64,000 nucleotides of DNA from a virus (Duplodnaviria > Caudoviricetes): the IMG/VR virus record IMGVR_UViG_3300044981_000214. One strand, 5' to 3'. The notes below the pieces were generated by a model. It saw only the letters and a list, made by a program, of their open reading frames with translations. It ran no database searches and had not been told where the DNA came from. The position numbers and the translations under genes are program-made. This document shows, piece by piece, positions 31 through 57,687 of the stretch (its first letter is position 1; every line of letters starts with the position of its first letter).

Positions 31-984
31 ATGGCTGTTCGCGCTAGTAATCGGACTGGCCGTTTTGACGATAGTCACGCAATTTTCATGAACCAGATTA
101 CGCTACCACATACAGAAAGCACGATACCGCCGCGAGCTGGTTGCCTACCATTGATTAAATGGGTAGGAGGTAAGAGAGCTTTAGTTCCCTTCCTGTCGCC
201 CATTATTCATGAGCTATTAACGGCGTCACATGGTCGCTACATCGAGCCTTTTCTTGGTGGTGGTGCTCTTGCACTCGACCTAGGCCAGCCAAATATGATG
301 CTGGCTGACTGCTGCAAGCCTCTTGTCACTATGTATCAAGGCGTGAAGAAAAATCCTGCAGCCGTTCATCGATTACTGACCGAACTGGTTTCTGAAGGCG
401 TTGACAAGGAATCGTATTTGCGGGTCCGTGCCATTCACAACGAGACCAAGGTTTCAGGAGTACTGCTAGGTGCAGCACGATTTCTCTATCTCAGCGCGCT
501 GTCGTTCAATGGACTCTATCGAGAAAACAGCAAGGGAGAATTCAACGTTCCGTGGGGGCAGAACGCCAAAGGCCAAAACCAGAAGCGTCGGATACCTAGT
601 TTGGAAGAAATCCAAGCAGTAGCGCGTGCACTGGCGACTAGTGAAGTTATAGTTAGCGACTTTAGCGGTTTAGTAAATCGAGCAGAACGAGGTGATGCGA
701 TTTATGGAGACCCACCCTACTATGAAACCTTTACGAACTATACTTCCAACGGCTTTATGGAACAAGACCAAGCTGATTTGGCTGTCACGCTCAAGTTAGC
801 GCACGAACGCGGTGTCTACGTTTTCGCCTCTAACATAGACCATCCTAGAATTCGCGAGCTGTATGCCTGGGCCTATATAACGCCTGTTACTGAGAAGCAC
901 ACGGTTGGTGCTACTGGAGCCAGACGAGGTGCCAAGAAAGCAGTACTGATAGCGGGGCACTCAGATTACCTGAGGCAACGATGA
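31..984 (+). CDS. dam: Dam-family (D12 class) N6-adenine DNA methyltransferase
   Basis: KWVGGK, EPFLGGG (motif I), FNGLYRENSKGEFNVPWG and GDPPY (motif IV); the real start may be Met at 88. Confidence 0.9.
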   Translation: MAVRASNRTGRFDDSHAIFMNQITLPHTESTIPPRAGCLPLIKWVGGKRALVPFLSPIIHELLTASHGRYIEPFLGGGALALDLGQPNMMLADCCKPLVTMYQGVKKNPAAVHRLLTELVSEGVDKESYLRVRAIHNETKVSGVLLGAARFLYLSALSFNGLYRENSKGEFNVPWGQNAKGQNQKRRIPSLEEIQAVARALATSEVIVSDFSGLVNRAERGDAIYGDPPYYETFTNYTSNGFMEQDQADLAVTLKLAHERGVYVFASNIDHPRIRELYAWAYITPVTEKHTVGATGARRGAKKAVLIAGHSDYLRQR

Positions 985-1265
985 TCTCTCAAGATGATGT
1001 TCTGTGGGCTATACGTGCGTTGAGTGCTGCACGAGAATTCGTTAAGGCAGAAGAGATGGCACGCGAGTTTGATCTTAGACCCTACTGTCGAATCTGTAGT
1101 GCGCCTATGACATTCGACACGCGAACCTGGTTGCTGATCGGAGGGCGTTGTGTATTCGCTTGTCTCGATTGTGTAAATAATGATTCTTACCTGTTCAATA
1201 TTCAGCGCACTCAATTCGTAGACTCTTTTCGCTACTATAAAGTTAGCGAACAGGACATCGAATAG
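981..1265 (+). CDS. Hypothetical protein, 'ALQA' helical-module family with Zn ribbon
   Basis: DDVLWAIRALSAAREFVKAEEMAREFDL followed by CRIC...CLDC; similar to 57277..57687. Confidence 0.6.
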   Translation: MISQDDVLWAIRALSAAREFVKAEEMAREFDLRPYCRICSAPMTFDTRTWLLIGGRCVFACLDCVNNDSYLFNIQRTQFVDSFRYYKVSEQDIE

Positions 1266-1268
1266 CCT

Positions 1269-1463
1269 TTAGTAATCGCTTCCCGGTTGGCCACTAGCGT
1301 TAGAGTTTGTGCATTCCAGTTCGTGATTAGTAGCTTTAGGACAACGCTTGTTGCCACAAGATTCACAGGTGACAAAGGTACGGGCTACCGCACGAGCGAG
1401 TCCTGAGAGATGTGCAAGCGCCGCGTCTTCACATTTACGACAGCAGTAGATGCTTGTCTTCAT
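1269..1463 (-). CDS. Small Cys-rich phage protein
   Basis: CCRKC...CESCGNKRCPKATNHELECTNSNASGQPGS. Confidence 0.6.
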   Translation of the reverse strand: MKTSIYCCRKCEDAALAHLSGLARAVARTFVTCESCGNKRCPKATNHELECTNSNASGQPGSDY

Positions 1464-1747
1464 TTTATCGCCCGCCTCTTCCTTTTGGGCGTTTGCTCGG
1501 TTTCGAACGGAACGCCGTTGACCCAGTACATGCAGATGCTGTGCAGGTCGCCGGGGTCGATACGACCTTCCTGGACGGCGAGCCTGACTCCACGCTCTGT
1601 GATGCCAAACAAATCTGCGAGGTCACTGTAGCTGTATCCCCACAGTTTTGCCCAGGCCTTGGTGGAAGTTCGCTCACTAAGTCTAACTTGCCTGCGCCGA
1701 GTGAAGTGCCGTTTTCTAGTTGAAGCTCGGGGGTATTGGTCGGGCAT
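1460..1747 (-). CDS. HTH DNA-binding protein
   Basis: YSYSDLADLFGITERGVRLAV helix-turn-helix; AAGGAG upstream of the ATG. Confidence 0.65.
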   Translation of the reverse strand: MPDQYPRASTRKRHFTRRRQVRLSERTSTKAWAKLWGYSYSDLADLFGITERGVRLAVQEGRIDPGDLHSICMYWVNGVPFETEQTPKRKRRAIK

Positions 1748-2097
1748 GGCAAGGGCTCCTTGAATGTAATTGCTATTGAGTCTCCTAGTGGTACAGAGGG
1801 CAAATTATCCAATACAGTAGCGATTGCCTCAGGCCTAATCCATGAGGCATGCAGGTGGTGTGATTGACAAGCAATCAATAGATTGTCAGCTAGCGCTTGG
1901 GCAAGCATGAGACCGCTATAACGTTTAGCTGCGATCAACAGTAATGGAAATGGATTAGCTATCTGAATTTCTCGATAACGTCCTGGTAGATCGTTAGTAG
2001 CGCCGAGCTGAATCGGTCCACAAGGTGCCAGTTGAATGGCATAGACTACGGGGACATTGATCAAGCCGTTTAGGTTATATCTGAGGCACAAATCCAT
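1465..2097 (-). CDS. GIY-YIG-like (T5orf172/MUG113) protein, probably degenerate
   Basis: VYAIQLAPCGPIQLGATNDLPGRYREIQIANPFPL; the 3' half overlaps the HTH gene and is doubtful. Confidence 0.5.
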   Translation of the reverse strand: MDLCLRYNLNGLINVPVVYAIQLAPCGPIQLGATNDLPGRYREIQIANPFPLLLIAAKRYSGLMLAQALADNLLIACQSHHLHASWIRPEAIATVLDNLPSVPLGDSIAITFKEPLPCPTNTPELQLENGTSLGAGKLDLVSELPPRPGQNCGDTATVTSQICLASQSVESGSPSRKVVSTPATCTASACTGSTAFRSKPSKRPKGRGGR

Positions 2098-2229
2098 GGT
2101 TATTACACGTCAGTCTAGCACATCTTGTTGCGCGTAAGTTCCGTTTCTAAGCCGTCGCCTGTATAGTTGTGATCGCTACTGCGATCAATGCTTGACGTAT
2201 AGGAATAGTAGTGGGATATTAGTTATACT

Positions 2230-2465: not shown

Positions 2466-2479
2466 TCTGGATATGCGTC

Positions 2480-2700
2480 GCGCGGTATTTATACACACGC
2501 GACCTATTCGTCTTGAAAGTCCGCGAAGGCGCAATAGGATAAAATCTATTGTGCGTCGGCCTGCATATCATGAGTCGCCTCGGCGACGCGCTTATGCTTG
2601 ATCGGCTTTGCCCTGAAATTCTTTAGGGCTTCTCCTTCAACGACCTTAAATTTCAAGGCCTCCAGAACCCGCAAGCCGCGGGCTAAAATATTTAGGGCTG
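2480..2700 (-). ncRNA. Putative omegaRNA of TnpB-1
   Basis: Hairpin-rich region overlapping the tnpB 3' end (e.g. CAATAG..CTATTG); boundaries uncertain. Confidence 0.4.
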
Positions 2701-3769
2701 CGTTATGGTCGCGGTCTAATGTTAGGCCGCACTGAGGGCAATCGTGTACTCGGACACTCAAGTCCTTAGGTACCGGTTTGCCGCAGCCGTAACAGTCAAT
2801 CGATGTGCCGCTAGGGTTTACTGCCTGTACCCACTTACCAGCTTCTTCCGCTTTGTTAGTAGTACAAATGATGAAGGCACTCCAAGCAACATCATTGATT
2901 GCTTTACTCAAGCAGTGATTACGAACCATTCCTTTGATGTTCAACGCTTCAAAGGCGATGAGGTCGTACTTTGTTACTAACTCCTTTGCGAGGTGTCGGG
3001 CGTGATTGAGTTTCAAGTTCTTGATACGCTCGTAGGCCTTGGCAAGCTGGACCTTAGCTCTGAAACGGTTGTTGGAGTCCTTCTGCTTACGTGCTAGCTC
3101 TTGGTTGAGACGTTTCAACTTAGCTTCAGACTCACGATAGAACCGTGGGTTGGGGATGTGCTCACCGTTAGAGAGCGTCGCGAAGTGAGTCAAGCCGACA
3201 TCGATGCCAATCGCGGTTCCTGTGTTGTTCTTGTTCGGTGAAGGGCCAAGCTCAAGAACTAAACTGATAGCCCAATTCCCTGTACTCTTGTACTTTACGC
3301 TTACCTGCTTTATCTTCGCGTGCGCAGGTATCTTACGGTATAGATTGAATTTTACATAGCCGAGAGTTGGAATCTTGATCCGATTCTTAACTATTCTGGT
3401 CTTAGGGAACGTAAATGAGGCGTACCGGCGCGCACCTTTGTATCGTGGATAGCCTGGTACATCACCTTGCTTCACGCGTCTAAAGAAGGCAAGGAAAGCG
3501 CGATCGAGCCGAGTAATAGCTGACCTAAGAACGTCAACTGAGATTGCGCCCCATTCAAGGTCTTTCCTAAGTTCAGTCAGTTCTATCGTCTGATCAAATC
3601 GACTTATCGCCTTCTTCTGTGTCGTATACGCATGAGTACGCTGTTCCAAACAAGCGTTATAGAGCCAGCGGCAATGCTTGATCCAATCAAATAGTGTCTC
3701 TGCTTGTTTGGGCGTAGGCAATAGCGGATATGTGTAACTACGAAGCAAGCGGACGACATTTAAGCACAT
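2546..3769 (-). CDS. tnpB: TnpB RNA-guided endonuclease (IS200/IS605-type), no tnpA nearby
   Basis: N-terminal HTH; RuvC D (IGIDVG), E (IAFEAL) and D (DRDHNAA); CxxC-CxxC finger. Confidence 0.95.
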   Translation of the reverse strand: MCLNVVRLLRSYTYPLLPTPKQAETLFDWIKHCRWLYNACLEQRTHAYTTQKKAISRFDQTIELTELRKDLEWGAISVDVLRSAITRLDRAFLAFFRRVKQGDVPGYPRYKGARRYASFTFPKTRIVKNRIKIPTLGYVKFNLYRKIPAHAKIKQVSVKYKSTGNWAISLVLELGPSPNKNNTGTAIGIDVGLTHFATLSNGEHIPNPRFYRESEAKLKRLNQELARKQKDSNNRFRAKVQLAKAYERIKNLKLNHARHLAKELVTKYDLIAFEALNIKGMVRNHCLSKAINDVAWSAFIICTTNKAEEAGKWVQAVNPSGTSIDCYGCGKPVPKDLSVRVHDCPQCGLTLDRDHNAALNILARGLRVLEALKFKVVEGEALKNFRAKPIKHKRVAEATHDMQADAQ

Positions 3770-8306: not shown

Positions 8307-8648
8307 GTGGGATTCAAGATATTGATCTTTGCGTTTATTGGCGCTTCACTAGTATCAGTGCCTAAGGCATCTGCCGTACAAGACCCTGATGAACCTACAG
8401 CACCAATGCCTGACGCTAGGCCTGAACCACATGAACCGCCCCCGCTACCTGACCCGATTCCGGTTCCTCCAGAATCCCCGACTGATCCTGTAGAACTTCC
8501 TCCAGACCAAAATCCATTGCCCGATCCAGAAGACCCGCCTGACAGACCTGGGCCCGATGATTTTAGATATAGCCAAGACCTTCGCAGTTTAGACACGGCT
8601 GCCAGCCTACGCCGAAGCCTACAAAGATCATCCCGACGGGATGATTAA
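8307..8648 (+). CDS. Secreted Pro/Asp/Glu-rich low-complexity protein
   Basis: Signal peptide (..KASA) followed by PDP/PEP-rich tract. Confidence 0.55.
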   Translation: MGFKILIFAFIGASLVSVPKASAVQDPDEPTAPMPDARPEPHEPPPLPDPIPVPPESPTDPVELPPDQNPLPDPEDPPDRPGPDDFRYSQDLRSLDTAASLRRSLQRSSRRDD

Positions 8649-9066
8649 TCTCGTCCGGTTGCTGCCTGCAAGCCGGACATTGTCGAAGGGCGATCACGCG
8701 ATCGATACACTGCTTAGCCGTCTCATTTTCTTTGGGATCGAGGCTGAGACAAATATAGTCGGTGTCAGTTACTATTGCGTTCGGATCGCCGGTATTTAGC
8801 CGCTCAGCAGCAGCACGAAAGGCATCTGCCTGAAGAGGCACGAAGATCTTGTCTGAATATATGTGATATCGATATCGTGTAAGGTCACCGTAACTGATTC
8901 GATAACTACGATTTCCTGCGACGTGGAATCCCCAATCCGGGCCTTCTTCAATAACTAAGCGTTCCGCCTTAAAATCAGCTTCGATGTTATTAAGCACCAA
9001 TAAAGCCTGCAGGGCTTCCAATTTCTCACGGGGAAGTATCATGAATCGTACCTGTGCCCGCGGCAT
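8563..9066 (-). CDS. Hypothetical protein, ALQA module + C-terminal DnaJ-like Zn finger
   Basis: EKLEALQALL; CPAC...CLNCEGLG. Confidence 0.6.
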   Translation of the reverse strand: MPRAQVRFMILPREKLEALQALLVLNNIEADFKAERLVIEEGPDWGFHVAGNRSYRISYGDLTRYRYHIYSDKIFVPLQADAFRAAAERLNTGDPNAIVTDTDYICLSLDPKENETAKQCIDRVIALRQCPACRQQPDEINHPVGMIFVGFGVGWQPCLNCEGLGYI

Positions 9067-12963: not shown

Positions 12964-13551
12964 CTAGTCGTCATCCGAAACTCCCCCAAGTCCTTGTACC
13001 AGCGTACCTAACGCCGGAGGTCTTAACCCGGCCTTAAGGTAAGGGTAAGCCAAAGCTGTTGGCTGTGACTTAGCCATCTCGATAGCCACCATGCAGGTTT
13101 GCCTGATGGACGAACATACAGGAATATTCGGGTACGAGAGCTGTAGTCGCCTACGTAGGTAGGCCCCTCCAGTAAAACCCCGTTCAAACCCCACGACTAC
13201 ACGGGCAAGGCCTGCCTGCGACTTGATAGCCCACTCTCCAAGCTCGAATCGTGCCGCTTGGGCATAACTGCGATTGCAGCGGTGCGAAGTCTCCTTTGGA
13301 AAAAGAAAAAGCTGCACCCCGTTGACAGCTGCTTGCTCTTGCAACACCCGCGACCATTGAAGCTGATCTTCGAGCTTGCCGTTAAACGATTTGGCGCGTG
13401 GGTTAGCAAAGTGCATATTTCTTGACGCGTGCTGCGTCAAAATCGCTAGTGCTTCGCGTTGCCACTCCGCACAGCCCTGAATGGGACCATTCAAGTATAT
13501 CAACGGCTCGGATAAAGGCTGTTGAGGGAGATCAGGTGCAGTGAAAATCAT
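12964..13551 (-). CDS. Nucleoside 2-deoxyribosyltransferase-like protein
   Basis: IYLNGPIQGCAEWQ, ANPR, QLQW and RFELGEW motifs. Confidence 0.7.
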   Translation of the reverse strand: MIFTAPDLPQQPLSEPLIYLNGPIQGCAEWQREALAILTQHASRNMHFANPRAKSFNGKLEDQLQWSRVLQEQAAVNGVQLFLFPKETSHRCNRSYAQAARFELGEWAIKSQAGLARVVVGFERGFTGGAYLRRRLQLSYPNIPVCSSIRQTCMVAIEMAKSQPTALAYPYLKAGLRPPALGTLVQGLGGVSDDD

Positions 13552-13566
13552 GGTAAACTATTTAAT

Positions 13567-14178
13567 ATGCAACCGCTTGGGGATGTACAACCGACCCAAC
13601 AAATTTTCGAGTTTTCTTGTGGCAGTGCGGCATTAAAGGCCGTTCTAAAGCATTGGGGTATGGATGTTGACGAACCGACACTAATTGATCTTATCGGTGT
13701 AGACCCAAAGACAGGTAGCACTGCGTACCAAGTCGAGCGTGCCGCAAAGAAGCTCGGGTATCAAGCCATAACTTTTGAGTTCGACAACGTGGAGGAACTT
13801 AAACCTTTCGTCGACAATCACGTGCCCGTCATCATGGCTATCCAGAGCTTCAAACGGCCAGATCAAGGGCACTTCGTCGTCGGAACGAAAGTCCAAGACA
13901 ACACAATCGATATTATGGACCCAAACGTCAAAGGCAACTGGCGGACGATCTCGAAAGCTGAAGCTACTCGACGCTGGAAGTTTCGTGACAACGTGGGCAT
14001 TGTGGTAACGCCTAAGTCAGGTTTGGGGGAATTGGATTGGGTACGGTCAAGAAATCGGCAAATGTACGATTATGGTCGTGGGGTTGGAATTGCCGAAGAT
14101 GCCACCTGTAATCCACTTCTTTGGGCCGTCGGAGGGATAGCTGCTACGTTAGCTGCGGTGTGGCTGATTACGCGCTAG
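13567..14178 (+). CDS. C39-like cysteine peptidase with C-terminal membrane anchor
   Basis: QQIFEFSCGSAAL (Gln/Cys), GHFVV (His), MDPN (Asp); TM + R at the end; start set 7 nt after TGGTAAACT. Confidence 0.85.
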   Translation: MQPLGDVQPTQQIFEFSCGSAALKAVLKHWGMDVDEPTLIDLIGVDPKTGSTAYQVERAAKKLGYQAITFEFDNVEELKPFVDNHVPVIMAIQSFKRPDQGHFVVGTKVQDNTIDIMDPNVKGNWRTISKAEATRRWKFRDNVGIVVTPKSGLGELDWVRSRNRQMYDYGRGVGIAEDATCNPLLWAVGGIAATLAAVWLITR

Positions 14179-14620: not shown

Positions 14621-14852
14621 TATGTTCTGTGCCGAGTTCACGTCTCGGTCGTGGCTAGCGCCACATTCAGAACATACCCATTCCCTTATTCCAAGACCTG
14701 CGATACCTTTCGGCCTCGACTCGGGGATAATTCCACAAGCCGAACAGGTTTGGGTCGTGAAACGCTCTGACACTTCTTCGAATATCCCTTGGCGCCTTCT
14801 GGCCTTGTAATCAAGGGCTTGTTTGGAAGCGTACCAGCCTGCATCATAGATT
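14494..14852 (-). pseudogene. tnpB: 3' remnant of TnpB-2-like gene
   Basis: IYDAGWY...CSAC..CSEC..HDRDVNSAQNI; nearly identical to about 53997-54353; the 5' part is absent. Confidence 0.9.
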
Positions 14853-15124
14853 GTTGGGTTCTCGCAGTACCGACAGACCTAACAAATGCTCTACAGGCAG
14901 TATTGAATATAGGCAATCATGACTTGGCGAAAGAGTTAGCGAATGATGCAGGCTGGTCTCTAACATTGGTTCATACCTTCCAATCCTGGGGACCGAATTA
15001 TTACCAGTTGAGCATCAGAAGTGAGACGCCCCCTTTATTTGAAAGACATATGTATTTAATCTACATAGACCGTGTATTAGAATACGTTCCCTGCCCCAAG
15101 GAACGTGTTCATACCTATGTGTAA
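14789..15124 (+). CDS. ALQA-module family protein, possibly 5'-truncated
   Basis: PTDLTNALQAVLNIGNHDLAKELANDAGW; no start codon between the tnpB remnant and the module. Confidence 0.55.
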   Translation: MAPSGLVIKGLFGSVPACIIDCWVLAVPTDLTNALQAVLNIGNHDLAKELANDAGWSLTLVHTFQSWGPNYYQLSIRSETPPLFERHMYLIYIDRVLEYVPCPKERVHTYV

Positions 15125-15389
15125 CGACGGCGAGACTAGCCACGATTTCCTTGAGGCTCTTCAGGCCTTACTAAGGGTAGGTACAGACGAGGCTAAAGGC
15201 ATCGCGAAACAGCTTTGTCTCGATGCAGGATGGATACTAACCACCTATTCCAGCTTTGATAACGAGCCCTTTTGGGAACTGCAAAATTTTACAAGATACC
15301 CTGGTAAAGTCTTATATAGATATGTCCTCACTGATCGGATATCCGATTTGAAGACTTGGTACCCTGACACACTTGATATACTGGAGTAA
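15105..15389 (+). CDS. ALQA-module family protein
   Basis: DFLEALQALLRVG...AKQLCLDAGW. Confidence 0.7.
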   Translation: MFIPMCNDGETSHDFLEALQALLRVGTDEAKGIAKQLCLDAGWILTTYSSFDNEPFWELQNFTRYPGKVLYRYVLTDRISDLKTWYPDTLDILE

Positions 15390-15395: not shown

Positions 15396-16667
15396 ATGGC
15401 TGCAATCCTGCCCAATCTCGAAGTTCCCGAAGACATATCGATTCTAGAACGCGAATATTCAAAATGCGCCTCGTCGATGCATGGCGCAACGCTAGGCGAA
15501 AACAGTCCTAGCTGTCCATCGCCCGACACAGTCATCGCAGAGGCGCACGCAGGCCTACTCAACATGGTATTCGTTCGTGAGGCTGTAGAACAGAGTCTCA
15601 TAGACGTAACGTTCATTGCTCAGGCCGGAAATCTGGCTGGTAAAGATACTAAGGGCGTATACCTAGTACTCGACAAGCCGATCGGTAGGGGGCCGGCGTG
15701 GAACCCTACTACAAATCCTGACGTCCAACAGTATTCGTTGCTGAGCTGGACTAGCAAGATGGCTTGCCCCTCGTTCAGCTTGCCTGCAGGTGATATAACC
15801 ATTGGCGGTAGCTGTCCCGGGGCTGCAGCAGGACAGAGTGTCGTCCCCGAAGGACGGTTAGTTGCAGCCCAAAGACTAGTTGCCAAGATTATCAAGAAAG
15901 AAGTCAATTTGGCGCAGTGTATCTGTGAGCACTGCTATAGTATGGGAGGTCAGTACAGCACTGGCCAGGTCCAGTACGCACAGATCCTACGCTATCTATG
16001 GGCACGGCAAGCCATCAATGTTGTAGCACCAGCACCAGATGGCTCGCCGTCTACTGCGTTTATCGAGACGATGGTTTATGCAATCGACAACGCCAATTTC
16101 TACCTCCAAGGCAGCAAAGGCGAAGACGCTGAACTAGTTCCCGAGCAATCCGGCAAGAAATTTTTTCGTATTCACGATTCAGGCGATTTCTTTGAGGAAG
16201 AATATCTTAGCCAATGGAAACAAATCGCTAGGCGTCTACCGCATATTCACTTCTGGGCACCTTCGAGGATTTGGGCCACAAGTTGGGGCATTGACGCAGT
16301 CAATAAGATCAACTCGCCGATTGATAACTTAGTTATTAGACCGTCGAGCTATGAAATCAACGAGCATCCACCACGAGATTTGGGTCCGGGATGGAGTGCT
16401 GGATCAACAGTGATTGCAGCTGACCAATTTCTTGGAATGACATCAGAGCTTGAGAAATATGTCTACGAGCACGCGCAACGAGTAGCGGTTCGCCCGAATG
16501 GACCTGATCCAAGAGCAGATTGGAACTGCCAAGCCTACTCCACCGAAGACGCTAAGCACACTTGCAGGAAAGCCGTAGCGCCTCCTGGGAAAGGTGGCGT
16601 TGCTGGCAAAGGCTGCCGAGCTTGTTGGCTAAGTACCGATTTAGTAGTTAACTATACGTTACATTAA
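15396..16667 (+). CDS. GP88-like (radical-SAM-like) phage protein
   Basis: TSKMACPSFSLPA, SCPG, ICEHCY, FFRIHDSGDFF, FWAPSR and CRACW motifs. Confidence 0.75.
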   Translation: MAAILPNLEVPEDISILEREYSKCASSMHGATLGENSPSCPSPDTVIAEAHAGLLNMVFVREAVEQSLIDVTFIAQAGNLAGKDTKGVYLVLDKPIGRGPAWNPTTNPDVQQYSLLSWTSKMACPSFSLPAGDITIGGSCPGAAAGQSVVPEGRLVAAQRLVAKIIKKEVNLAQCICEHCYSMGGQYSTGQVQYAQILRYLWARQAINVVAPAPDGSPSTAFIETMVYAIDNANFYLQGSKGEDAELVPEQSGKKFFRIHDSGDFFEEEYLSQWKQIARRLPHIHFWAPSRIWATSWGIDAVNKINSPIDNLVIRPSSYEINEHPPRDLGPGWSAGSTVIAADQFLGMTSELEKYVYEHAQRVAVRPNGPDPRADWNCQAYSTEDAKHTCRKAVAPPGKGGVAGKGCRACWLSTDLVVNYTLH

Positions 16668-24134: not shown

Positions 24135-24776
24135 TCAATAAATCCTTGTGACACGCGGCACATCTTCAGCAAACGGCGACCGGCCTGCCAGCAACTCGAT
24201 AGCCGCGCTCCCATTACCGCAGCTCATAAGCGCTGCACAGGCTTCTAAAAGGTCGTCATCTGCTTCTACCAGCCTTTTAGCGTCGAGGTCCCACAGTTCG
24301 ATATAGAGCTGATCACGACGGGCGGGCTGATAGTCCCACACCTGAGCATGAATCACACGACATGCAGCCTGGGCTAATAGCTTTCGATTTGATCGACTAG
24401 CAGTAGGGTGACCCCAAACACTAGCTGCGAAGCGCGCAAGCCGTGGGCTAATCGCATGATGCTGGCCAAAGGTCAAGGCCGAATTGACCGCGTTCAGTAT
24501 TGAGGCTGAACTAGCCGACGTCATACGCGAAATATTGTACGAACCCGCTAGCCGCCCTTCGGGACTCGCGATGCCAACGCATACCTCGGACCAGGGTTTG
24601 GTACGCGATTGACCTCCCCAGACGGCTTTGTATTGCCACGTGTGGCTTGTAACAGCTTTATCGATTAGTTCCTCGAAAGAAAATCGAGCACATGCGACAT
24701 CGTTGCTGCCCTCATCATCGAGAGGATCTTGCCAGTCTCGCCAGTCACTACAGATCAATCGAATATTGGCTGACAT
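24135..24776 (-). CDS. Hypothetical protein with C-terminal ALQA-like module
   Basis: DDLLEACAALMSCGNGSAAIELL; start reassigned to MSANIRL. Confidence 0.55.
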   Translation of the reverse strand: MSANIRLICSDWRDWQDPLDDEGSNDVACARFSFEELIDKAVTSHTWQYKAVWGGQSRTKPWSEVCVGIASPEGRLAGSYNISRMTSASSASILNAVNSALTFGQHHAISPRLARFAASVWGHPTASRSNRKLLAQAACRVIHAQVWDYQPARRDQLYIELWDLDAKRLVEADDDLLEACAALMSCGNGSAAIELLAGRSPFAEDVPRVTRIY

Positions 24777-25354
24777 GAAGGTGAAGGCGAATAGATTATC
24801 GAGAATTATTAAGAAGCCTTGGTAGCGCCGACATCCACGGCACAAGGCCTGACGGATACTCTGCAGTATACCCACGCCAGCCGTCGTTCTCGCACGCAAT
24901 GAGCGCATCGTTGCGCGTGTTGAAAATCGCGTCGTGACCATTGACCTGAAGCCAGCCACGAATCTTGGCATTTGGCTCAGTCGGGTGCTTGTTGTCGTGC
25001 ATATACACGACGCCGTAAGTAATCATATTAATCCTCGATCTTGAGGGCAATTTTGAAATTACGCTTACCTGCAGGGACGACGCCTTCAGCCAACCGTGCG
25101 ACCATCGCGTCACGAAATTCAATAATCTCTGCGGGCGTCAACGCGCGCTCCGAATCAGCAGAATACATCCAACGAATTTCTTGCATCAGGTACGCATCAA
25201 TCAATGCGTTGCGAATCACAGGCCCAAAAAGGTGCCACGAGTGCCTGCTATCACTAGCGGCAAATTCACGGGCTGACCGCTCGATGTCTTCTTTGCAAAA
25301 TCGCTTCATTTGAAGATGCAACGTAGGTAGTCTATCGATTATTCCACTAAGGAA

Positions 25355-29547: not shown

Positions 29548-29967
29548 GTGGCTGTTGTTGAGAACTATTCATCAGGCATTATTTACACTATTGCTGTTTG
29601 TGTGGATCGGAAAGATCGTCACGCTGAAGCATATCTAAATGCACACACACGAGTCGATTGGGGCGTGAAATTCTTTCAAAGGCGAAATCCTGACCGTTAC
29701 CAGAGCGAAGAAAAATGGCAAGGAACTGGATATCGTTTCATTGATGCCATTAAAATCTGTCAGGCCTGGGCTATTCACGGTGAAGCGCTTGAGGATAAAC
29801 AGAGAAAGATGATGATGATGCTGGGTGCCGTAGACCCTAACGGATACGTCACTGACGGCGAACGCCTACACGCTATCGAAGCGGCCTGGACAGCAGGTGC
29901 ATACGACTTGGCTAAGCAACTGGCAGCAGATTGTGCACCTGGGAAAGCGCGCAAGAAGAGCGCATAG
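29548..29967 (+). CDS. Hypothetical protein with C-terminal ALQA-like module
   Basis: ERLHAIEAAWTAGAYDLAKQLA. Confidence 0.55.
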   Translation: MAVVENYSSGIIYTIAVCVDRKDRHAEAYLNAHTRVDWGVKFFQRRNPDRYQSEEKWQGTGYRFIDAIKICQAWAIHGEALEDKQRKMMMMLGAVDPNGYVTDGERLHAIEAAWTAGAYDLAKQLAADCAPGKARKKSA

Positions 29968-32423: not shown

Positions 32424-33305
32424 ATGCCATCAACCGATAAACTTGAATCAGCTATAACCAACGCAAGAAAATTTCGGCCACGAACGCGAGAGTTATACCT
32501 TCAACACGTTCGCGGTTTCTTGCGCTTTGGTACAGGCAAACGCAAAGTTGACTTAGAACGCGTCGAGCTTTGGCGCGATAGCATGGTCGATCGCGGGGTG
32601 GCACCGCAAAGCATTAACGTTGCGTTGAATGCCTTACGGTTCGCTGTAAAGACGGCAGGCTTTACCTTCGGTGACGACATTCAAACCGTGCCCGTACCCG
32701 ATAAGGTAACTAGGAAAAGGAATCGGGCTCTGACCTGGAACGAAAGTATTAAGCTGTTAAATTCTTGCGCTACAGATCAGCCGCGGGACATTCGCGATAG
32801 AGCCATCATCACACTTGGCTTACGTACTGGCATGTTGCGCTTCAGCCTATGCCAGTTGAAACTAGACGATATAGACAGCGGGACTTTGACTTTCGTGAAA
32901 AAAGGCGGACGGAAGCATATTATCAGTCTAGACCACTGTACCGTTGTAGCGTTAACGGCATGGACCGACTGGCTAGCTTCAAATGGCGTGACTTCTGGTC
33001 CGTTGTTTAGAAGCCTCAGTAGACCAACGGCACGGAGTCTGGCTATCGGCCAGCCAAGAGTAGAAATAGGTGGTCTACTGACGCCTGACGGCTTATATCG
33101 AGCGTTCAAGCTTCGAGCGGAGTACGCCGGTATCGACGACTTGAATCCTAACATTTTTCGTCAAACGTTCATCGAGTGGTCCAAGAAAGCCGGGGCTAGT
33201 GCGTCGCAAATCGCGGCTGTCACTGGACATAAATCAGACGGTAACGAGAATAACCGTGAAGGACCTCCTGCCAATTTCTTACTCGACGGTTGGAAACATG
33301 ACTAA
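32424..33305 (+). CDS. Tyrosine-recombinase-fold protein, catalytically degenerate
   Basis: RDRAII..TGMLR; NIFR instead of HxxR; no Tyr after VTGH. Confidence 0.8.
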   Translation: MPSTDKLESAITNARKFRPRTRELYLQHVRGFLRFGTGKRKVDLERVELWRDSMVDRGVAPQSINVALNALRFAVKTAGFTFGDDIQTVPVPDKVTRKRNRALTWNESIKLLNSCATDQPRDIRDRAIITLGLRTGMLRFSLCQLKLDDIDSGTLTFVKKGGRKHIISLDHCTVVALTAWTDWLASNGVTSGPLFRSLSRPTARSLAIGQPRVEIGGLLTPDGLYRAFKLRAEYAGIDDLNPNIFRQTFIEWSKKAGASASQIAAVTGHKSDGNENNREGPPANFLLDGWKHD

Positions 33306-43227: not shown

Positions 43228-43461
43228 CTATATGAGGTCGTCATATTTCCCAGTATCTTCTCGTGGCCCTACAATTCGAGAAGGAAATATCCAATATCGA
43301 TCAGGGTGTCTGTGTAACAAATAGTATCTCGGGTCATCCCGATCGTGACAGCGTAACGCATACCCTGCGTTTTCTGCAATTGTGCTAGCCAAATCATGTT
43401 GCCCAACATGTAGGCAAGCTTGCAAGGCGTGCAGCAGTTCAAGAATAGATTCGAAGGTCAT
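43228..43461 (-). CDS. ALQA-module family protein
   Basis: LELLHALQACLHVGQHDLASTIAENAGY. Confidence 0.72.
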   Translation of the reverse strand: MTFESILELLHALQACLHVGQHDLASTIAENAGYALRCHDRDDPRYYLLHRHPDRYWIFPSRIVGPREDTGKYDDLI

Positions 43462-43757
43462 TAGAATAACTTCTGACGTTCATAACCGTAGGACATTCTA
43501 TACACGCCATCAGCTGTTATACGATAGGATAACTTCCATAAATGTTCCTGCCGGTGGATCGTGTAATAATGTTGGCTAAGCCAATTCTCGTTGGTCCACT
43601 CACTAAACACCCATCCTGCATCCTCTGCAAGCGCGTGAGCCAATTTGGGCTGCCTAGCGTTGAAACAAGCTTGGAGCGCGTGCAGTAGCTCAAGTAGCTT
43701 GTTGTTCTCCTCAAGGATTGTAGATGTGGCCTGTTCTGTCATAGCTGACAATTTCAT
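43461..43757 (-). CDS. ALQA-module family protein
   Basis: LELLHALQACFNARQPKLAHALAEDAGW. Confidence 0.72.
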   Translation of the reverse strand: MKLSAMTEQATSTILEENNKLLELLHALQACFNARQPKLAHALAEDAGWVFSEWTNENWLSQHYYTIHRQEHLWKLSYRITADGVYRMSYGYERQKLF

Positions 43758-43962
43758 CCATGTAGACCACGTGACGTGGACGAGGGTTTGCCTTCCCTAC
43801 TTCCTTTATAGGCCGTAGTTCATAACACCGTTGCCCTTGATTATCCCACAACGCTATCAGCCACCATCCATAATCATGGACTATGCACCTTGCTAAGTTA
43901 TACGATTCTCCAGTACGGAGAAGCGCTTGTACCGCTTGGAGTAACTCGTTAGAGAGCGTCAT
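43711..43962 (-). CDS. ALQA-module family protein
   Basis: NELLQAVQALLRTGESYNLARCIVHDYGW. Confidence 0.72.
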   Translation of the reverse strand: MTLSNELLQAVQALLRTGESYNLARCIVHDYGWWLIALWDNQGQRCYELRPIKEVGKANPRPRHVVYMDEIVSYDRTGHIYNP

Positions 43963-44288
43963 GTAAGTGTAGTAGCTTCACCCGCTAACACCCAATTGTC
44001 CGCTAGGCTTCTCCGTGATAAAAATATAACCCGATTCTGATCTGGATTGACTAGATATCCTCTATTGTCAGAGGTCATGATCCAATTTCTTGGCCCGCGA
44101 ATACTCAACGGAGCCCAACGAGTGAATACATGATCGGTACTTGTACCTGATGCAGTTCCCCAGTCAGCGAACGTCAAACGCCAATTAAGCGCTACAGCAA
44201 ACACCATCGCTTCAGCGCGCTTGATATGAATTAACGCCTGTATAGCGTTTATCAGTTCGATGTCGTTATCAATAACAGAGAGACTCAT
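43959..44288 (-). CDS. ALQA-module family protein
   Basis: IELINAIQALIHIKRAEAMVFAVALNW. Confidence 0.68.
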   Translation of the reverse strand: MSLSVIDNDIELINAIQALIHIKRAEAMVFAVALNWRLTFADWGTASGTSTDHVFTRWAPLSIRGPRNWIMTSDNRGYLVNPDQNRVIFLSRRSLADNWVLAGEATTLT

Positions 44289-44737
44289 TTTAGTTCTCGC
44301 TCTGGATCGCCGATAGCACGTCGTAGGAGATTAGCTAAGCCGTTAGCCAACGGTGCGGTCCAGAATGTCGTCTTGCGTGCGTTCGTCAGTTTGTCTAGGA
44401 CCTTTATGATTTCACGAATCGACTCGGCCGTAGTAGGATAATGCGCGCCACAGGCGTCAGCTACTGCTGTTGTAGCCCTTCTGGCAATTTCTTTCTGTTG
44501 GTTCTGTTCTAGTTCTCTCAGATTCAACCACGGACGGTCATCCATACCACTGCCCCAACACTTGTCACAGACGTCGACCGACATAGCTTGCCCGCCTATT
44601 CCCCTGCGCCATCCAGAGGTATTCCCGTACATCTTAGTGCCTAAGCCTGCACACTGTTCGCACGCGTCATCTTCGTTCCGAATGCCTCGCTGTCGCAGTA
44701 GGTCTCGCCAGGCTTCGTCGTAATCGGCGCTACTCAT
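44285..44737 (-). CDS. DnaJ-type Zn-finger protein
   Basis: CEQCAGLG...CDKCWGSG. Confidence 0.65.
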   Translation of the reverse strand: MSSADYDEAWRDLLRQRGIRNEDDACEQCAGLGTKMYGNTSGWRRGIGGQAMSVDVCDKCWGSGMDDRPWLNLRELEQNQQKEIARRATTAVADACGAHYPTTAESIREIIKVLDKLTNARKTTFWTAPLANGLANLLRRAIGDPERELK

Positions 44738-45021
44738 TTGTAGTCCTCTTCTTTAGTTGAGATTACAAACTTTATGCGTTCGGAGCTTACTGAGAAGGTT
44801 TCAGGAATAACCGCGGATCCATTGGACATTTCCAGTTCCTGTTGTTTCTGTAATAATAAACAAAAGGACGATGCATCCATGAACGGGATCACACGCCACC
44901 CAGCAGCTCTGGCTATAGCGTCGGCTTGGTCGTAGTGTCGAATCTTCAGCAAAGCTTGAATAGCGTTAAGGAGTTCGTCATCCATGAAATGAAGAGGGAT
45001 CGAGTAAATCTGTAAAATCAT
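44734..45021 (-). CDS. ALQA-module family protein
   Basis: DELLNAIQALLKIRHYDQADAIARAAGW. Confidence 0.72.
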   Translation of the reverse strand: MILQIYSIPLHFMDDELLNAIQALLKIRHYDQADAIARAAGWRVIPFMDASSFCLLLQKQQELEMSNGSAVIPETFSVSSERIKFVISTKEEDYK

Positions 45022-45211
45022 CGGGGCTGATCATAATGATGTGTTCGCGGTTCCAACTATTACCGGCTTGTGCAATACGTAGGTACCATCCATCAGAATA
45101 TTTCCAAGCTTGAGCCTCCCAGCCGGCAAATACAGCCAAGTCTTTGGCTTGGCTTATCTCGCCAAGCTTTAACAAAGCTTGAATCGCGTGGATAAGCTCG
45201 ATCGGGAGCAA
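44978..45211 (-). CDS. ALQA-module family protein
   Basis: LPIELIHAIQALLKLGEISQAKDLAVFAGW. Confidence 0.72.
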   Translation of the reverse strand: MLPIELIHAIQALLKLGEISQAKDLAVFAGWEAQAWKYSDGWYLRIAQAGNSWNREHIIMISPDDFTDLLDPSSFHG

Positions 45212-45217: not shown

Positions 45218-46398
45218 TTACTTTCGAGCTTGAAGCTTCGGACGTACCTTTGAGGCTCCTGTGCGAGGCATTTTCTTCACAACTTTACGTGCCACGCGTG
45301 AATTTATCACCGGCTGACTCGCCGCGGTGGTGGAGCCTATTTTCTTATGGTGGCTGCGTTTGGCAGGAACGAGTTGAGTATTGGCTTGCTTGGTTGGTTG
45401 CTTATTTCTCAAGTATGCAGAGACATCAGGAGGGTCTTTAGCGTTGCCCTCTTGTGTATGGAAAACGTCGCAGGCAAGCTTTGCTGAATCGAAGGCCATC
45501 TGGGCGTCGCGTCTGGTAAGGGCGCAGTTATGCCAGGCATCGCGTGCAAGTATGTCCTGCCAATAGGCGACTTTACAAGTCAGGTTAGGACAGCCTTTCG
45601 CTGCATCACCAGCTTTTCGAGCCGCTTCGATTTTCTGTTTTAGCCGTTCGGCTGTGCGTGCCCATTCTTCAGATAACCGTAGGGCTTGTTCGAGGTCTTC
45701 TTGGAGCGTTTTTGGGGGCTTGAGGGTGTGGAGGGTCATCGCATCCCTATCTTTTTTGAATTGATTCGGGTTCTCGAACAAGGCCACCCGTTGTCATCCT
45801 GTTGACAAGTTGTTTCTATACTGGGCATATTAGGACGGTACAAGACCCAAATATCAGAACTGTGATAAGGCCATCTGGCAACTCCGCCTGATTTCAGCAT
45901 CACCATTGTCTTTGCTGCAGATTGATATCCGACTTCGAGAGGAACCAGTCGAGGTCCAACGGTAATTATTGGTCCCGGTACTAATTGCTTAGTCTTTACT
46001 ATAGACCCTCCAAGGTGAATATGATCATACCATCCGAAATTACCGTCATGATCATCATTACCGCCTTGGAAATTTGCGTAGAATTGAGGCGATAACTGTT
46101 CAAGCTTGGCGTTGTTCTCCTCTGTAGCCCTGTCGTTGCCAGGAGTCTCGCCAAGAGATATTCGGGCTATGCGTGTCCGTCCTCGCATAATATCGGCATA
46201 GACCAAAATGAATGCATAAGCATCAGTAAACGTAATAGGCCAACGATCCCATTTTTGGAATATTGCATCTACAAGCGCAGGTTCATAAGGTTTCTTGGCA
46301 TTCAATTTACTTAACACTTGTGCGATCGTTGTTGCCAATTCAGGTTCAACAGCAAGTCTTTTGGACATTGCAGCTTCAAGTTCAGTCTCATAGCTCAT
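45218..46398 (-). other. Two hypothetical genes (45218..45787, 45736..46398)
   Basis: Co-directional ORFs downstream of the recombinase. Confidence 0.6.
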
Positions 46399-46404: not shown

Positions 46405-47403
46405 CTATCCTAGTTCCTTAGGCAAAATGCCTGCGGCAGATGTATTCGTTAGATCTGTTGTGTAATGGTCGATGATAGCGTCTGATAGTTGACCCGTAAT
46501 TCGCTTGATTTGATATATAGGAACGCCTCGTGCAACCATGTAACTAATAAACGAGTGACGCATTACGTGAGGGGTTACACCTGTGACTCCTGCAAGACGG
46601 GCTCTTTTTTTTACAGCTTCATATATACCTTCATCTGTAAGCGGCCCTACGAGTTCATCGCTGTTGCGTTTGAATGCTCTAAAAAACGGCCCTGTATTAA
46701 CCCCGTATCGTTTAATTAACACGTCTTGCCATGCGTTTACAGCCTTTATACAAGCTGCATCAAGAGGTACCTCCCAACGACGCTTCCCCTTAAGCTGAAT
46801 CTCTACAACCGCCTCTTTGGTTCTGTACGAAGTTTTGAAGTCCGTGAGTAGAATGCCTGCCATACCTGATCTACGCATTCCTGTCCGAAAACCAAGGACT
46901 AGTATCGCAAAGTCTCTTACATCTCTCGGATTATTACTCCGACAGGTATTTAATATAGCAGCTGCGGAAGACTCAGGAATAGCATACCTATTCTTTTTAC
47001 TCTCTTCCTTCTTTAGTTTAAGCCCGTCGGCGAAGTCATATTTGGCTATACTCTCCCCCGCTCGTTTGACACGTAACGCGTAGGCTCTAGAAACCCAACG
47101 AATGGCCTTAGTATAAAGGAGTACGCTTTGTGGGCTTAGCGGCGCAGGCGCTCGTCGTCTACGGTCACTGCTTATTAGGTTAAGTTCAAGGCCCGAGGCT
47201 GACAATTTCTTTCGCCAATCCTGTACGGCTGCAGTTGTCCAGTCTTTGCGTGCCCCACCAGCAAAGGCTATAAAGTCTCGGATTGCACGTTCATACAGGC
47301 GAGATGTTTCAGGGCTAAAGTCGTCTTTATTAGCTTCTAATGTCGTTAACAGAGTCTCCGTCGGCACGGCTTTTACCCTCTCATAGCGAAACCCTAAAGT
47401 CAA
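46405..47403 (-). CDS. Tyrosine recombinase (XerC/D-like)
   Basis: TGMRR, LKGK, HVMRH, ITGQ..IDHY. Confidence 0.88.
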   Translation of the reverse strand: MTLGFRYERVKAVPTETLLTTLEANKDDFSPETSRLYERAIRDFIAFAGGARKDWTTAAVQDWRKKLSASGLELNLISSDRRRRAPAPLSPQSVLLYTKAIRWVSRAYALRVKRAGESIAKYDFADGLKLKKEESKKNRYAIPESSAAAILNTCRSNNPRDVRDFAILVLGFRTGMRRSGMAGILLTDFKTSYRTKEAVVEIQLKGKRRWEVPLDAACIKAVNAWQDVLIKRYGVNTGPFFRAFKRNSDELVGPLTDEGIYEAVKKRARLAGVTGVTPHVMRHSFISYMVARGVPIYQIKRITGQLSDAIIDHYTTDLTNTSAAGILPKELG

Positions 47404-53200: not shown

Positions 53201-54322
53201 ATGATCCTGACCTACAAATATCGGCTCAAAGGTAAGCGTACAGTTCGTCAACAGCGACAGTTTGCTTGGGCTGTAAACCAAGTGTGGAATTTCTGCGTTG
53301 CCGTGCAGCGCAAGATCCAGCGGAATTGGAAAGAAGGGTTGTTATCAAAATGGCCGTCCTTCTACGATTTGAAGGATCTGACCGCAGGATCCTCCAAAGA
53401 ATTGAGCCTTCATGCACAAACGATTCAGGATGTTTGTGCCCAATTTGTGAAGTCACGTGATCAACACAAGAGATGCCCAAAGTTTCGTAAGTCGAACGGA
53501 TCAAAACGTTCTCTTGGGTGGGTTCCATTTGAGGGACAGTCCCGGCAGATCACCTCTAGCTCGGTAACATATCTCGGCAACGAATATCGTTTCTTTGGTG
53601 CTAAGCGGCGTCCTCTTCCTGACACTGCTAAAGGCGGTTGTTTTGTAGAAGATGCGCGGGGACGGTGGTGGGTTTGCTTCCATGTCGAAGTTGATCAGTT
53701 GCAGCAAGCACCTGCTAAGGCAGTTGGGATCGATCTTGGACTGAAGACGCTAGCAACGTTATCAACAAATAAGAAGATCGAGGCGCCAAAGTTCTATCGA
53801 AAGCTTGAAAAGAAACTTGCGACGGCCCAACGGGCTAATAATCACGATCTAGCAAAAGCAGTAAATGCCAAAATCGCAAACCGTCGTCGTGATCACACGC
53901 ATAAATGGACGACGTGGTTAGCTAACAACTATAGCTTAATTTGTGTAGGCGATGTTTCAAGTTCTAAACTGGCCAAGACGTCGATGGCAAAGTCCATCAA
54001 CGATGCAGGCTGGTACGCTTCCAAGAAAGCCCTTGATTATAAAGCCAGAAGGCGCCAAGGGATATTCGAAGAAGTGTCAGAGCGTTTCACGACCCAAACC
54101 TGTTCGGCTTGTGGAATGACCCCCGAGTCGAGTCCGAAAGGTATCGCAGGGCTTGGAATAAGGGAATGGGTATGTTCTGAATGTGGCACAAGCCATGACC
54201 GAGACGTGAACTCGGCACAGAACATACTTAATCTCGGGCTGAGTGCGCTGTCGAAAAGCCAGCTGAGAATCCTAGCGGGTGCTCATCAGCCTCCTGTGGA
54301 GGAAAGCCGGGTTGCTCAATGA
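53201..54322 (+). CDS. tnpB: TnpB with rearranged RuvC-II, no tnpA nearby
   Basis: VGIDLG, VGDVS (canonical E absent), VSERFTT (alternative E), DRDVNSA, Zn finger. Confidence 0.95.
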   Translation: MILTYKYRLKGKRTVRQQRQFAWAVNQVWNFCVAVQRKIQRNWKEGLLSKWPSFYDLKDLTAGSSKELSLHAQTIQDVCAQFVKSRDQHKRCPKFRKSNGSKRSLGWVPFEGQSRQITSSSVTYLGNEYRFFGAKRRPLPDTAKGGCFVEDARGRWWVCFHVEVDQLQQAPAKAVGIDLGLKTLATLSTNKKIEAPKFYRKLEKKLATAQRANNHDLAKAVNAKIANRRRDHTHKWTTWLANNYSLICVGDVSSSKLAKTSMAKSINDAGWYASKKALDYKARRRQGIFEEVSERFTTQTCSACGMTPESSPKGIAGLGIREWVCSECGTSHDRDVNSAQNILNLGLSALSKSQLRILAGAHQPPVEESRVAQ

Positions 54323-55797: not shown

Positions 55798-55851
55798 AGG
55801 TTGTTCGAAGTGTAGCTTGAATTGGCAAAGAAATAGCTAGATAATACCGTT

Positions 55852-55992
55852 ATGGCCAAGCGTAAACGAGGATTCTGGGATAAGAGACGAAAGTACGACC
55901 GTGTAATCTTTCGCAAATTCCCTGAAGGTGACGTGATCGCTCTGTTTCCCTCACAGTCTGAAGGGCTAGGCGGCGTAGAGGACGGTAATTGA
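55852..55992 (+). CDS. 46-aa protein with basic leader, possibly truncated (not in ORF track)
   Basis: MAKRKRGFWDKRRKYDRVIFRKFPEGDVIALFP...; GATAAT 6 nt before the ATG. Confidence 0.55.
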   Translation: MAKRKRGFWDKRRKYDRVIFRKFPEGDVIALFPSQSEGLGGVEDGN

Positions 55993-55993
55993 T

Positions 55994-56629
55994 ATGAAGC
56001 GTCACCGTGTAGACTTTAGTTTTGGCGACTCAGCCGATGACAGTTTTCTTGTTGCACGCGATGCAATTGAAGAAAAAAGACCAGGCTGGGAACAGCACGT
56101 AACCAAGATCATGGCTCAGGTTAAGCAAGAATATCCTGATGCAACGATTCCAGATGATCTAGGTCCATGGGACCCGGACTGGTGGGCCGCGTTTGCTGAA
56201 GGCGCTGCTCGCGCTATTTGGTCGGATACCTATATTACCGAGGTTGAACAGCTTACCGAAAGCGATGATCCAGGCGATCGAGAAGCCTATCGCGAGTTGT
56301 CCCCTGGACCCGGTGGAGCGTGGGAGTCTGTGATACCTGAAACTGTTCCTACGTCAGCAGAGAAACAGGGCAAGGAGTTCACGACGCAAGTGCGAAGAGC
56401 GTTGAAAAGAGAGGATCAAATAGAAGTAGCGTCTAAGCTTGACGCAGACACCGCAGGATGGTATGGGATGATGCAGGCACTAGGGCACGGTATGGGTTGG
56501 GGCGACTACGACATCAACGCTGATCCTGATATTCATGCTATGCCTGATACTGACGTCTACAACGACGCCTACCAGGCTGTGACTGAAGCGCTAGAAGAAG
56601 CCGGATACGAGAGAGCAGACGAAGAATAA
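55994..56629 (+). CDS. Acidic protein with basic FGD leader; N-domain shared with 4257..4817
   Basis: MKRHRVDFSFGD...ARDAIEEKRPGW. Confidence 0.75.
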   Translation: MKRHRVDFSFGDSADDSFLVARDAIEEKRPGWEQHVTKIMAQVKQEYPDATIPDDLGPWDPDWWAAFAEGAARAIWSDTYITEVEQLTESDDPGDREAYRELSPGPGGAWESVIPETVPTSAEKQGKEFTTQVRRALKREDQIEVASKLDADTAGWYGMMQALGHGMGWGDYDINADPDIHAMPDTDVYNDAYQAVTEALEEAGYERADEE

Positions 56630-57276
56630 TCTACTTAAGCAATTTATCGTTGCACTTGCACGGTTCGCCCCACAAATAGACTCGCCATGCAGTAATGATT
56701 TCGTTCAGCCTTGGGGACGCAAGCGCATCAGCAGCTGTCCACTTTAGCTGTTTGCAGTTGGGACAGCGTTTTTTCTCTAACCGTGCTAGGTCATGTTCAA
56801 TACGACAGTCACGACAAATTCGTGGATTGTATGTAGACTCGCCACACTCCTCACACGCTCGCTCCACGTATTCGTCGTCGTTTGGCATTTATGGCTTCCA
56901 GATGTTGTGGAGCAGCCTTTCACGTAGTCGGTCGTAGATGCGTCTGCCGGAACGCAACACGACTCTGCCGTCTAGCAACGAATCAGCAATGCGTGCAGCG
57001 ATGTCTTCAGGAAGCTTGACGTCTTCTTTGAGCGCTTGCTCCAACGCTTCGCGAATGATTTTTATGAGCCGTTCGCGCATGCCAAGACCCGTATGTTGAT
57101 AGGTTACCATATGAGCTGTTAAACAGGCTGCATTCTTCGTGTTCTAGTAGCTCGTGGGTGTCGGGCATTTTCGTTGAAGCTTACGACCTAAATTTACAAT
57201 AAGTCAAGAGCAAGGTGAATCTTCGAGAGCCTTGAGCATTTAGCTTGCTTTTCGTGTAGACTAAGCTGACCTAGTA

Positions 57277-57687
57277 ATGGCCCTCTCGAAGAAGACCCGC
57301 CAGGCTCTTAAAGAAACGCCAATTGCCCTTTTCAAGGGTGCTCGCCGAGCAGTCTTTGTCGATGGTGTGACTGAAGAAGAAATACTTCAAGCCATACGTG
57401 CGGCTGCCGGCATACATGAATTCTATTTGGCTAATGACATAGCCGCGCGATACAACTTAGAAATTTGCTGCCGATGCGCATGGCTTGAGAGTTCATGGTC
57501 TGCACTATGCACCCCTAGCAAGCATTCCGCGGTCACAAATAATCATTGGGTTCGAGTATGCTCGGGCTGCGCTCTGTACATACCATCAATTGCACTGGTA
57601 GCTGGTGACGAAGGTGCAGGCGCACGACTACTAGAGAAACTTCACGCGAACGGCGAAGATATCGATGACGAGGACGAGGACGAATGA
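57277..57687 (+). CDS. ALQA-like module protein with Cys pairs
   Basis: EEILQAIRAAAGIHEFYLANDIAARYNL. Confidence 0.6.
   Translation: MALSKKTRQALKETPIALFKGARRAVFVDGVTEEEILQAIRAAAGIHEFYLANDIAARYNLEICCRCAWLESSWSALCTPSKHSAVTNNHWVRVCSGCALYIPSIALVAGDEGAGARLLEKLHANGEDIDDEDEDE

Follow-up and report, generated by a model that had tools for sequence, protein, structure and literature searches.

A 64,000-nucleotide stretch of the IMG/VR virus record IMGVR_UViG_3300044981_000214 (Duplodnaviria; Caudoviricetes), called the window below, encodes a family of small proteins that share a short alanine-rich N-terminal motif. The core of this family consists of eight open reading frames (ORFs), six in a minus-strand array at 43228-45211 and two on the plus strand at 14789-15389 (Table 1). 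Near the N-terminus of all eight translations we find ELLxA[ILV]QALLxxGxxDxAxxLAxxAGW, and strict patterns for this motif occur 8 times in the six-frame translation of the window, whereas 100 base shuffles gave 0.01-0.02 on average and never more than 1. The six array copies and the pair had been recognised in a first-pass annotation made from the sequence, and they stand.

Eight core genes and their predicted domain

A profile built from the eight core ORFs recovers all of them in the six-frame translation at E 1e-15 to 1e-18, values that are so low by construction, as the same sequences built the profile. The glutamine in helix 1 is invariant across the core family. Neighbouring array genes have 4-nt overlaps of the kind typical of co-translation, and one transcript therefore probably serves them all. 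At the DNA level, the only repeat still recognisable among the copies is a 37-nt stretch encoding helix 1 (65-76% identity), which shows the copies to be old. Family members in the window are acidic to neutral, with isoelectric points (pI) of 4.5-6.8, and since each of the core eight has few cysteines (0-3) at unconserved positions, they fall outside the four-cysteine zinc-finger class described below.

Table 1. Positions of core family members, looser relatives and associated features in the window (aa, amino acids)
Feature	Position	Strand	Description
Core member 1	44978..45211	-	77 aa, TTG start, hairpin from residue 4; fused to member 2 in other soil strains
Core member 2	44734..45021	-	probable start ATG at 44985 (83 aa, identical to P0007)
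Non-member inside array	44285..44737	-	150 aa, two CxxCxGxG motifs (zinc-finger protein); overlaps both neighbours by 4 nt
Core member 3	43959..44288	-	109 aa; other strains retain only codons 1-28 (44203-44288) at this site
Core member 4	43711..43962	-	83 aa; used for structure prediction
Core member 5	43461..43757	-	98 aa, or 93 aa from ATG at 43742 (identical to P0003)
Core member 6	43228..43461	-	77 aa, last gene of the array; stop codon at strain breakpoint 43228/43229
Core member 7	14789..15124	+	start uncertain (TTG 14789 or 14819); P0010 ortholog-like, 44% identity
Core member 8	15105..15389	+	probable start ATG 15117 (90 aa); P0009 ortholog-like, 51-55% identity
Putative inversion breakpoint of other strains	15305/15306		in core member 8
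Strain-variable block	43229..44202		974 bp; three whole array genes and most of a fourth; missing at this site in contigs of three other soil runs (three studies)
Core-type domain with extension	8563..9066	-	domain at residues 9-75, then about 90 aa ending CxxC...CxxCxGxG
Zinc-finger-type member	981..1265	+	94 aa; hairpin, then CxxC...CxxC
Zinc-finger-type member	57277..57687	+	136 aa; N-terminal extension, hairpin, four-cysteine finger, acidic tail
Probable C-terminal hairpin	29857..29928	+	within the 139-aa protein 29548-29967; short basic tail after
Unsupported candidate	24135..24971	-	listed in the first-pass annotation
C39-family peptidase gene	13522-14178		Pfam E 2.5e-16; about 600 bp upstream of the pair 14789-15389
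GP88-like protein gene	15396-16667		used to find related virus records

The first-pass annotation had listed 13 genes as carriers of this module, and 12 of them hold up, at differing strength. For the product of 8563-9066, alignment with the core profile spans 62 columns, hairpin and strands included (hhalign probability 89%, E 2.4e-6), so that this looser copy proves to contain the whole core domain. A whole-domain profile that includes the Y-x-I-x-x-D-R-I strand region is matched by the eight core ORFs and 8563 as well as by three proteins from outside the window (P0009, P0010 and P0001), and not by 981, 57277, 29548 or 24135. The genes at 981 and 57277, which had been counted as copies, have a related hairpin and belong to a second, zinc-finger family. 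Of the two proposed C-terminal copies, that in 29548 is probable: 24 residues at its C-terminus are picked up by a combined hairpin profile built without it (E 1.8e-5 in the window; hhalign probability 71%), and its ortholog in a 196-kb relative gives a weak hairpin match of 6.7 bits. The other, 24135, failed every test and was rejected as a family member (hhalign probability 0.2%, -3.4 bits). The expectation that a hidden Markov model would unite the listed genes was therefore borne out for the eight core ORFs and 8563, for 981 and 57277 through the hairpin, and probably for 29548, and failed for 24135.

An AlphaFold2 model of the 43711-43962 product, computed from an alignment whose 10 rows are paralogs and two metagenomic relatives, is confident (predicted local distance difference test, pLDDT, 90.2; predicted template modelling score, pTM, 0.75) and has an alpha-alpha-beta-beta-beta-beta order, with helices at residues 5-17 and 21-30 and strands at 33-39, 45-51, 63-66 and 71-74. 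A core member is thus predicted to be a single compact domain, in which two helices (13 and 10 residues) form a tightly packed antiparallel hairpin rich in alanine, followed by a short four-stranded sheet. Because the model shows one compact domain, what had looked like a module is better described as the conserved half of a tiny domain than as a free-standing handle. The annotation had also looked to structure prediction and search of the module; the first gave this compact model, and a Foldseek search with it returned no match at E <= 0.001 in PDB or BFVD. The best result of a VIA-align wide search, to the N-terminal part of inositol-monophosphatase-type phosphatases (Z 5.2, root-mean-square deviation (rmsd) 3.9 A over 80 aligned residues), lies below the noise level of that tool and was discarded, and a search of the ESM Atlas gave no usable feature match.

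The two halves of the domain differ greatly in conservation. Among the nine core-type members of the window (the eight core ORFs and 8563), paralogs are on average 42% identical in the hairpin and 15% identical in the tail, and, judged by eye, the hairpin is also the better conserved part between ortholog-like pairs. Leave-one-out tail profiles perform no better than shuffles, and tail-against-tail hhalign probabilities are mostly below 2% (the best is 9%), which bears out the earlier statement that the sequences outside the module do not align. The further claim that the module sits on unrelated partner domains does not survive for these nine members. Their tails are of the same length class and share one strand pattern across the alignment (W-x-L, an aromatic pair then x-L, then Y-x-I-x-x-D-R-I), and the one member modelled is predicted to be a single compact domain. 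The annotation's own counter-case, in which the C-terminal parts have one fold, largely applies here, and the eight core proteins and 8563 look like ordinary diverged paralogs.

The hairpin also raised the idea that helix 1 might be a cleavable leader, a signal for the C39-type peptidase encoded at 13522-14178, close upstream of the pair. Several members do have a hydrophobic residue followed by glycine at the turn after helix 1. However, only about one member in two has the glycine, no conserved small residue precedes it and no Gly-Gly or Gly-Ala pair is conserved, so that the Gly-Gly, Gly-Ala or Gly-Ser leader end (15-30 residues) expected of C39 substrates is lacking. Helix 1 is, moreover, part of a confidently folded domain, and the array lies 28 kb away from the peptidase gene. 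We regard this explanation as very improbable.

Two side observations concern the looser copies. The CxxC...CxxCxGxG end of 8563-9066 resembles the protein with two CxxCxGxG motifs encoded in mid-array at 44285-44737, with which it has the motif alone in common by BLASTP; the core domain and this finger type may be functionally linked. In addition, a 310-residue open frame in the 196-kb relative (L014:1501-2430, at about 170.7 kb of G001) has a hairpin-like end, DDDLMAAFEAALIAGAYDFANELV (11.7 bits), and is 30% identical over 64 residues to the C-terminal part of 29548.

The zinc-type family and the distribution of both families

The products of 981-1265 and 57277-57687 are related to each other (BLASTP E 4e-6) and belong to a zinc-type family with the consensus DG-x-x-x-x-D-I-x-x-A-I-Q-A-A for the hairpin, then C-x-R-C, about 25 residues and C-x-x-C. 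Both CxxC pairs are present in these two proteins and in 11 relatives, and C40, C43, C71 and C74 are invariant in the alignment; the glutamine of helix 1 is not conserved. hhalign links the core and zinc-type families with a probability of 78% (E 1.7e-5) over 28 columns that correspond to the hairpin only. An AlphaFold2 model of the zinc-type protein has a helix pair of 13 and 10 residues, as in the core, at pLDDT >90, followed by a CxxC, a beta-hairpin and the second CxxC in a finger region of pLDDT 54-76. A structure search with this model gave no Foldseek match at E <= 0.001 and a best VIA Z of 4.1. The earlier picture of a conserved helix pair with a variable remainder therefore holds in a modified form, with at least two architectures, beta-sheet tail and zinc finger, and possibly a C-terminal third.

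The zinc-type family is much more widely spread than the core family. Among 5.8 billion proteins it forms at least 42 clusters (82-148 aa), none of which has a Pfam domain or carries a source name beyond 'hypothetical protein'. Related virus records, located through the GP88-like neighbour gene, contain 7, 3 and 1 zinc-type matches, the 7 being in the 196-kb record, where five copies stand head to tail (L009:1516-2912, at about 64.8-66.3 kb of G001). Longer fused forms of the family were not found by search, which we rate as weak evidence. Several relatives (P0015, P0028, P0038 and L012:1402-1677) end in a hydrophobic residue and glycine followed by an arginine-rich tail (...ASGRRRRP, ...SMGRSKRVR).

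The core family, by comparison, does not occur in any of four related virus records, of which one is 90% complete. Beyond the window proteins, an exhaustive search of 1.8 billion representatives with the core profile gave only P0009, P0010 and P0011. The first two are short JGI proteins, each on a 932-bp contig, probably one and the same, and are ortholog-like to 15105 and 14789. P0001 (162 aa), from a separate search, consists of fused orthologs of 44978 and 44734, and these three short JGI proteins (P0009, P0010 and P0001) are the only known occurrences of the core family elsewhere. P0011, the sole long match of the core profile, is a 1491-aa ankyrin-repeat protein whose E-value arises by adding up nine near-identical repeats that score 1-5 bits apiece, and we dismissed it as an artefact. 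Scans of the members with Pfam, PHROGs and NCBIfam matched no family, PDB sequence profiles gave nothing below E 0.09, phage and plasmid collections held no similar DNA, and scans of IMG/VR, JGI metagenomes and GTDB genomes with family members produced no matches. Upstream of the GP88-like gene, synteny with the relatives is lost, and a positional link between the core and zinc-type families could not be established.

The closest precedent described for such an expansion is in Bacillus phage G, in which a small zinc-ribbon protein has undergone a lineage-specific expansion to about 35 copies, proposed to be minimal transcription factors or DNA-binding proteins (Iyer et al., 2021, PMC7824862). 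The two cases have in common a very large phage genome in which a tiny protein is present in many diverged, partly tandem copies, together with the CxxC...CxxC of the zinc-type branch; the likeness is one of description and carries no claim of sequence relation. Unlike in phage G, a conserved N-terminal hairpin here precedes the finger, and the eight core genes, which have lost zinc ligands or never had them, encode a beta-sheet instead.

By analogy, the helix pair and zinc finger could together constitute a minimal transcription factor or DNA-binding protein, and the whole set could be nucleic-acid-binding regulators. The four invariant cysteines, the arginine-rich ends of several zinc-type relatives and the phage G precedent are in keeping with this. 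So is the position of 981-1265, which overlaps the stop of a D12 adenine methyltransferase gene (31-984) by 4 nt, an overlap that suggests translational coupling of the two. Against it, the members in the window are acidic to neutral, the core family is without zinc ligands, and the weak structural matches of the hairpin are to TPR/PPR-type and designed hairpins, not to helix-turn-helix DNA-binding domains. A regulatory role of this kind seems to us quite doubtful.

Variation among soil strains

Near-identical DNA is present in soil metagenome runs, which made it possible to compare strains at the array. In contigs of four other soil runs (three studies), the flanks are 95-99% identical to the window, and the strain-variable block 43229-44202 is uncovered in all of them. 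In two runs the sequence joined to 44203 is that of window positions 15306-15335 on the opposite strand, with 1 mismatch, and one 39.5-kb contig has the two flanks 26.7 kb apart and in opposite orientation. The difference would fit an inversion of about 28 kb, from 15306 to 43228, with breakpoints inside core members 15105-15389 and 43959-44288 at a TGGT microhomology. The ORF at the junction is out of frame, with 28 codons and then 15 more. The rearranged form is probably the derived one, because the intact 15105 has a full-length relative elsewhere (P0009). Two runs carry different sequence beyond 43228 that replaces 43229-44202. Members are thus dispensable in some strains. Where the core genes are present, the strain differences listed inside them (11 synonymous, 4 non-synonymous) point to purifying selection.

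At the other end of the array, an extra A after 45013 in all four runs fuses 44978-45211 with 44734-45021 into a two-domain protein like P0001, and the split form seen in the window is the rarer one. Further small insertions near 45013-45047 occur in two of the four runs.

Such a fusion could mean that hairpins of different copies pair into four-helix bundles, giving homo- or hetero-oligomers or tandem domains. The fusion of two neighbours in other soil populations agrees with this, as does the fact that the pair 14789/15105 has counterparts, P0010 and P0009, probably on a single contig. However, the fusion may be a neutral frame change of 1 nt, and a core member is confidently predicted as a single chain. 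A complex prediction for the 15105 and 14789 products scored 0.00, which is evidence neither for nor against contact. We think self-association through the hairpins rather improbable.

A candidate set of small binder proteins and its setting

Taken together, these data lead us to propose, at about even odds (a probability of roughly 0.5), that the family is an accessory, diversifying set of small binder proteins, lineage-specific and strain-variable, in a large uncultured soil bacterial virus. Its members would be small soluble proteins of 75-110 aa and of the pI range given above. The hairpin would be the older part, as the wider zinc-type family of the same virus group joins it to a four-cysteine finger, and it would stay constant, with a primary role as structural keel for the fold, as second halves diverge or are replaced. 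The array genes are probably co-expressed, and individual targets, probably host or viral proteins in takeover or counter-defence, would be bound by the variable halves of the different copies. Turnover of the set would proceed by duplication, divergence of the tails, fusion and splitting of neighbours, and illegitimate recombination.

Several points weigh against this proposal. Neither the leave-one-out profiles nor hhalign provide proof from sequence that the tails are homologous, and since the tails cannot be aligned, the view that all core members have one fold draws on the alignment pattern and a single model. That model represents one core member and was built from a 10-row alignment in which its own paralogs predominate, and for this protein the ESM Atlas offers a weak model (pTM 0.52, pLDDT 0.61). 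The link between the core and zinc-type families is moderate (probability 78%) and concerns about 28 alanine- and leucine-rich columns. Finally, four or five members are lost in several strains, and the genes could equally matter little.

A different reading, close to that of the first-pass annotation, is that the proteins are adaptors for a hub: the hairpin would dock on one viral or host machine and the variable halves would recruit different targets. The marked difference in conservation between hairpin and tail (42% versus 15% among paralogs, with the same trend by eye between ortholog-like pairs) would be expected of such adaptors, as would the presence of the hairpin on at least two different second halves and the invariant glutamine of helix 1 in the core family. 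Yet that glutamine is unconserved in the zinc-type family, the model places the hairpin in a compact domain instead of presenting it as a free handle, and packing alone conserves alanine-rich hairpins. Furthermore, no hub has been identified, and the F-box and ankyrin profiles are without match. We therefore consider hub adaptors unlikely. In its broadest form, in which the hairpin is a portable docking handle of this group of large soil viruses that plugs beta-sheet tails, zinc fingers and larger proteins into one machine, the idea appears distinctly unlikely; if true, the handle would be a prokaryotic-virus counterpart of F-box and PRANC adaptors.

Three known helical elements bear on the possible role of the hairpin. 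The F-box and PRANC adaptors of eukaryotes and poxviruses combine a constant short helical handle with variable target-binding parts; we know of no Skp1-type partner in bacteria. One core member does start LLPIELIxxI, resembling the start of an F-box, a likeness that the annotation had noted. It dissolves on closer comparison, as the F-box is a three-helix domain of about 45-50 residues, whereas the model has two helices (5-17, 21-30) and then strands, and the LP start is found in one of the eight core members. The Pfam F-box (PF00646 / PF12937) and ankyrin profiles gave no match at E <= 1 to the eight core members, and F-box gave none to 981 or 57277 either. With ankyrin repeats the hairpin has in common the register of small and hydrophobic residues (A-L-L-x-x-G-x-x-[DE]-L-A-x-x-L-x-x-A-G), but instead of a stack of 33-residue repeats each protein has one hairpin, whose first helix is longer and after which come strands or a zinc finger. 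The coat-binding tip of the phage P22 scaffolding protein is a helix-turn-helix that docks as a free-standing antiparallel pair (PDB 8i1v chain H), and it superposes on the zinc-type hairpin with an rmsd of 1.3 A over 30 residues and a noise-level Z of 3.5. The two have no sequence relation, any two-helix hairpin superposes equally well, and the hairpin here lies inside a larger domain.

Returning to the proposed set of small binders, an expanded family of orphan small proteins in a large phage is an already known kind of thing; large phages have many expanded families of tiny orphan proteins, almost none with a known role. What seems new is that one conserved hairpin is joined to a zinc finger in some proteins and to a cysteine-free sheet in others. 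The present case offers a confident fold prediction without a clear solved match, together with a constant and a variable half. Natural strain variants, by loss, fusion and breakage, show which copies are dispensable, and testability is further helped by the connection with a more widespread zinc-finger family in this virus group. Should the hairpin turn out to be a shared handle, it would offer a simple, natural scaffold on which small binders diversify; otherwise this is another accessory paralog family, mainly useful for annotating the virus group.

The genomic setting is that of a large virus. The window proteins map to a 228,894-base contig, and short ORFs crowd the window, which also encodes a D12 DNA methyltransferase, a C39 peptidase, a GP88-like protein and one tRNA-Met. 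No RNA run is among the sequencing runs listed with near-identical DNA. The array neighbours 44285-44737 and 45218-45787 have no relatives in the four related virus records. An integron-like reading of the array was set aside because its overlapping genes leave no room for attachment sites. The window further contains two TnpB/IS605 OrfB-type and two tyrosine recombinase genes (2546-3769, 53201-54322, 32424-33305 and 46405-47403), and one of the tyrosine recombinase genes heads the island that contains the array, an island without counterpart in the four related records.

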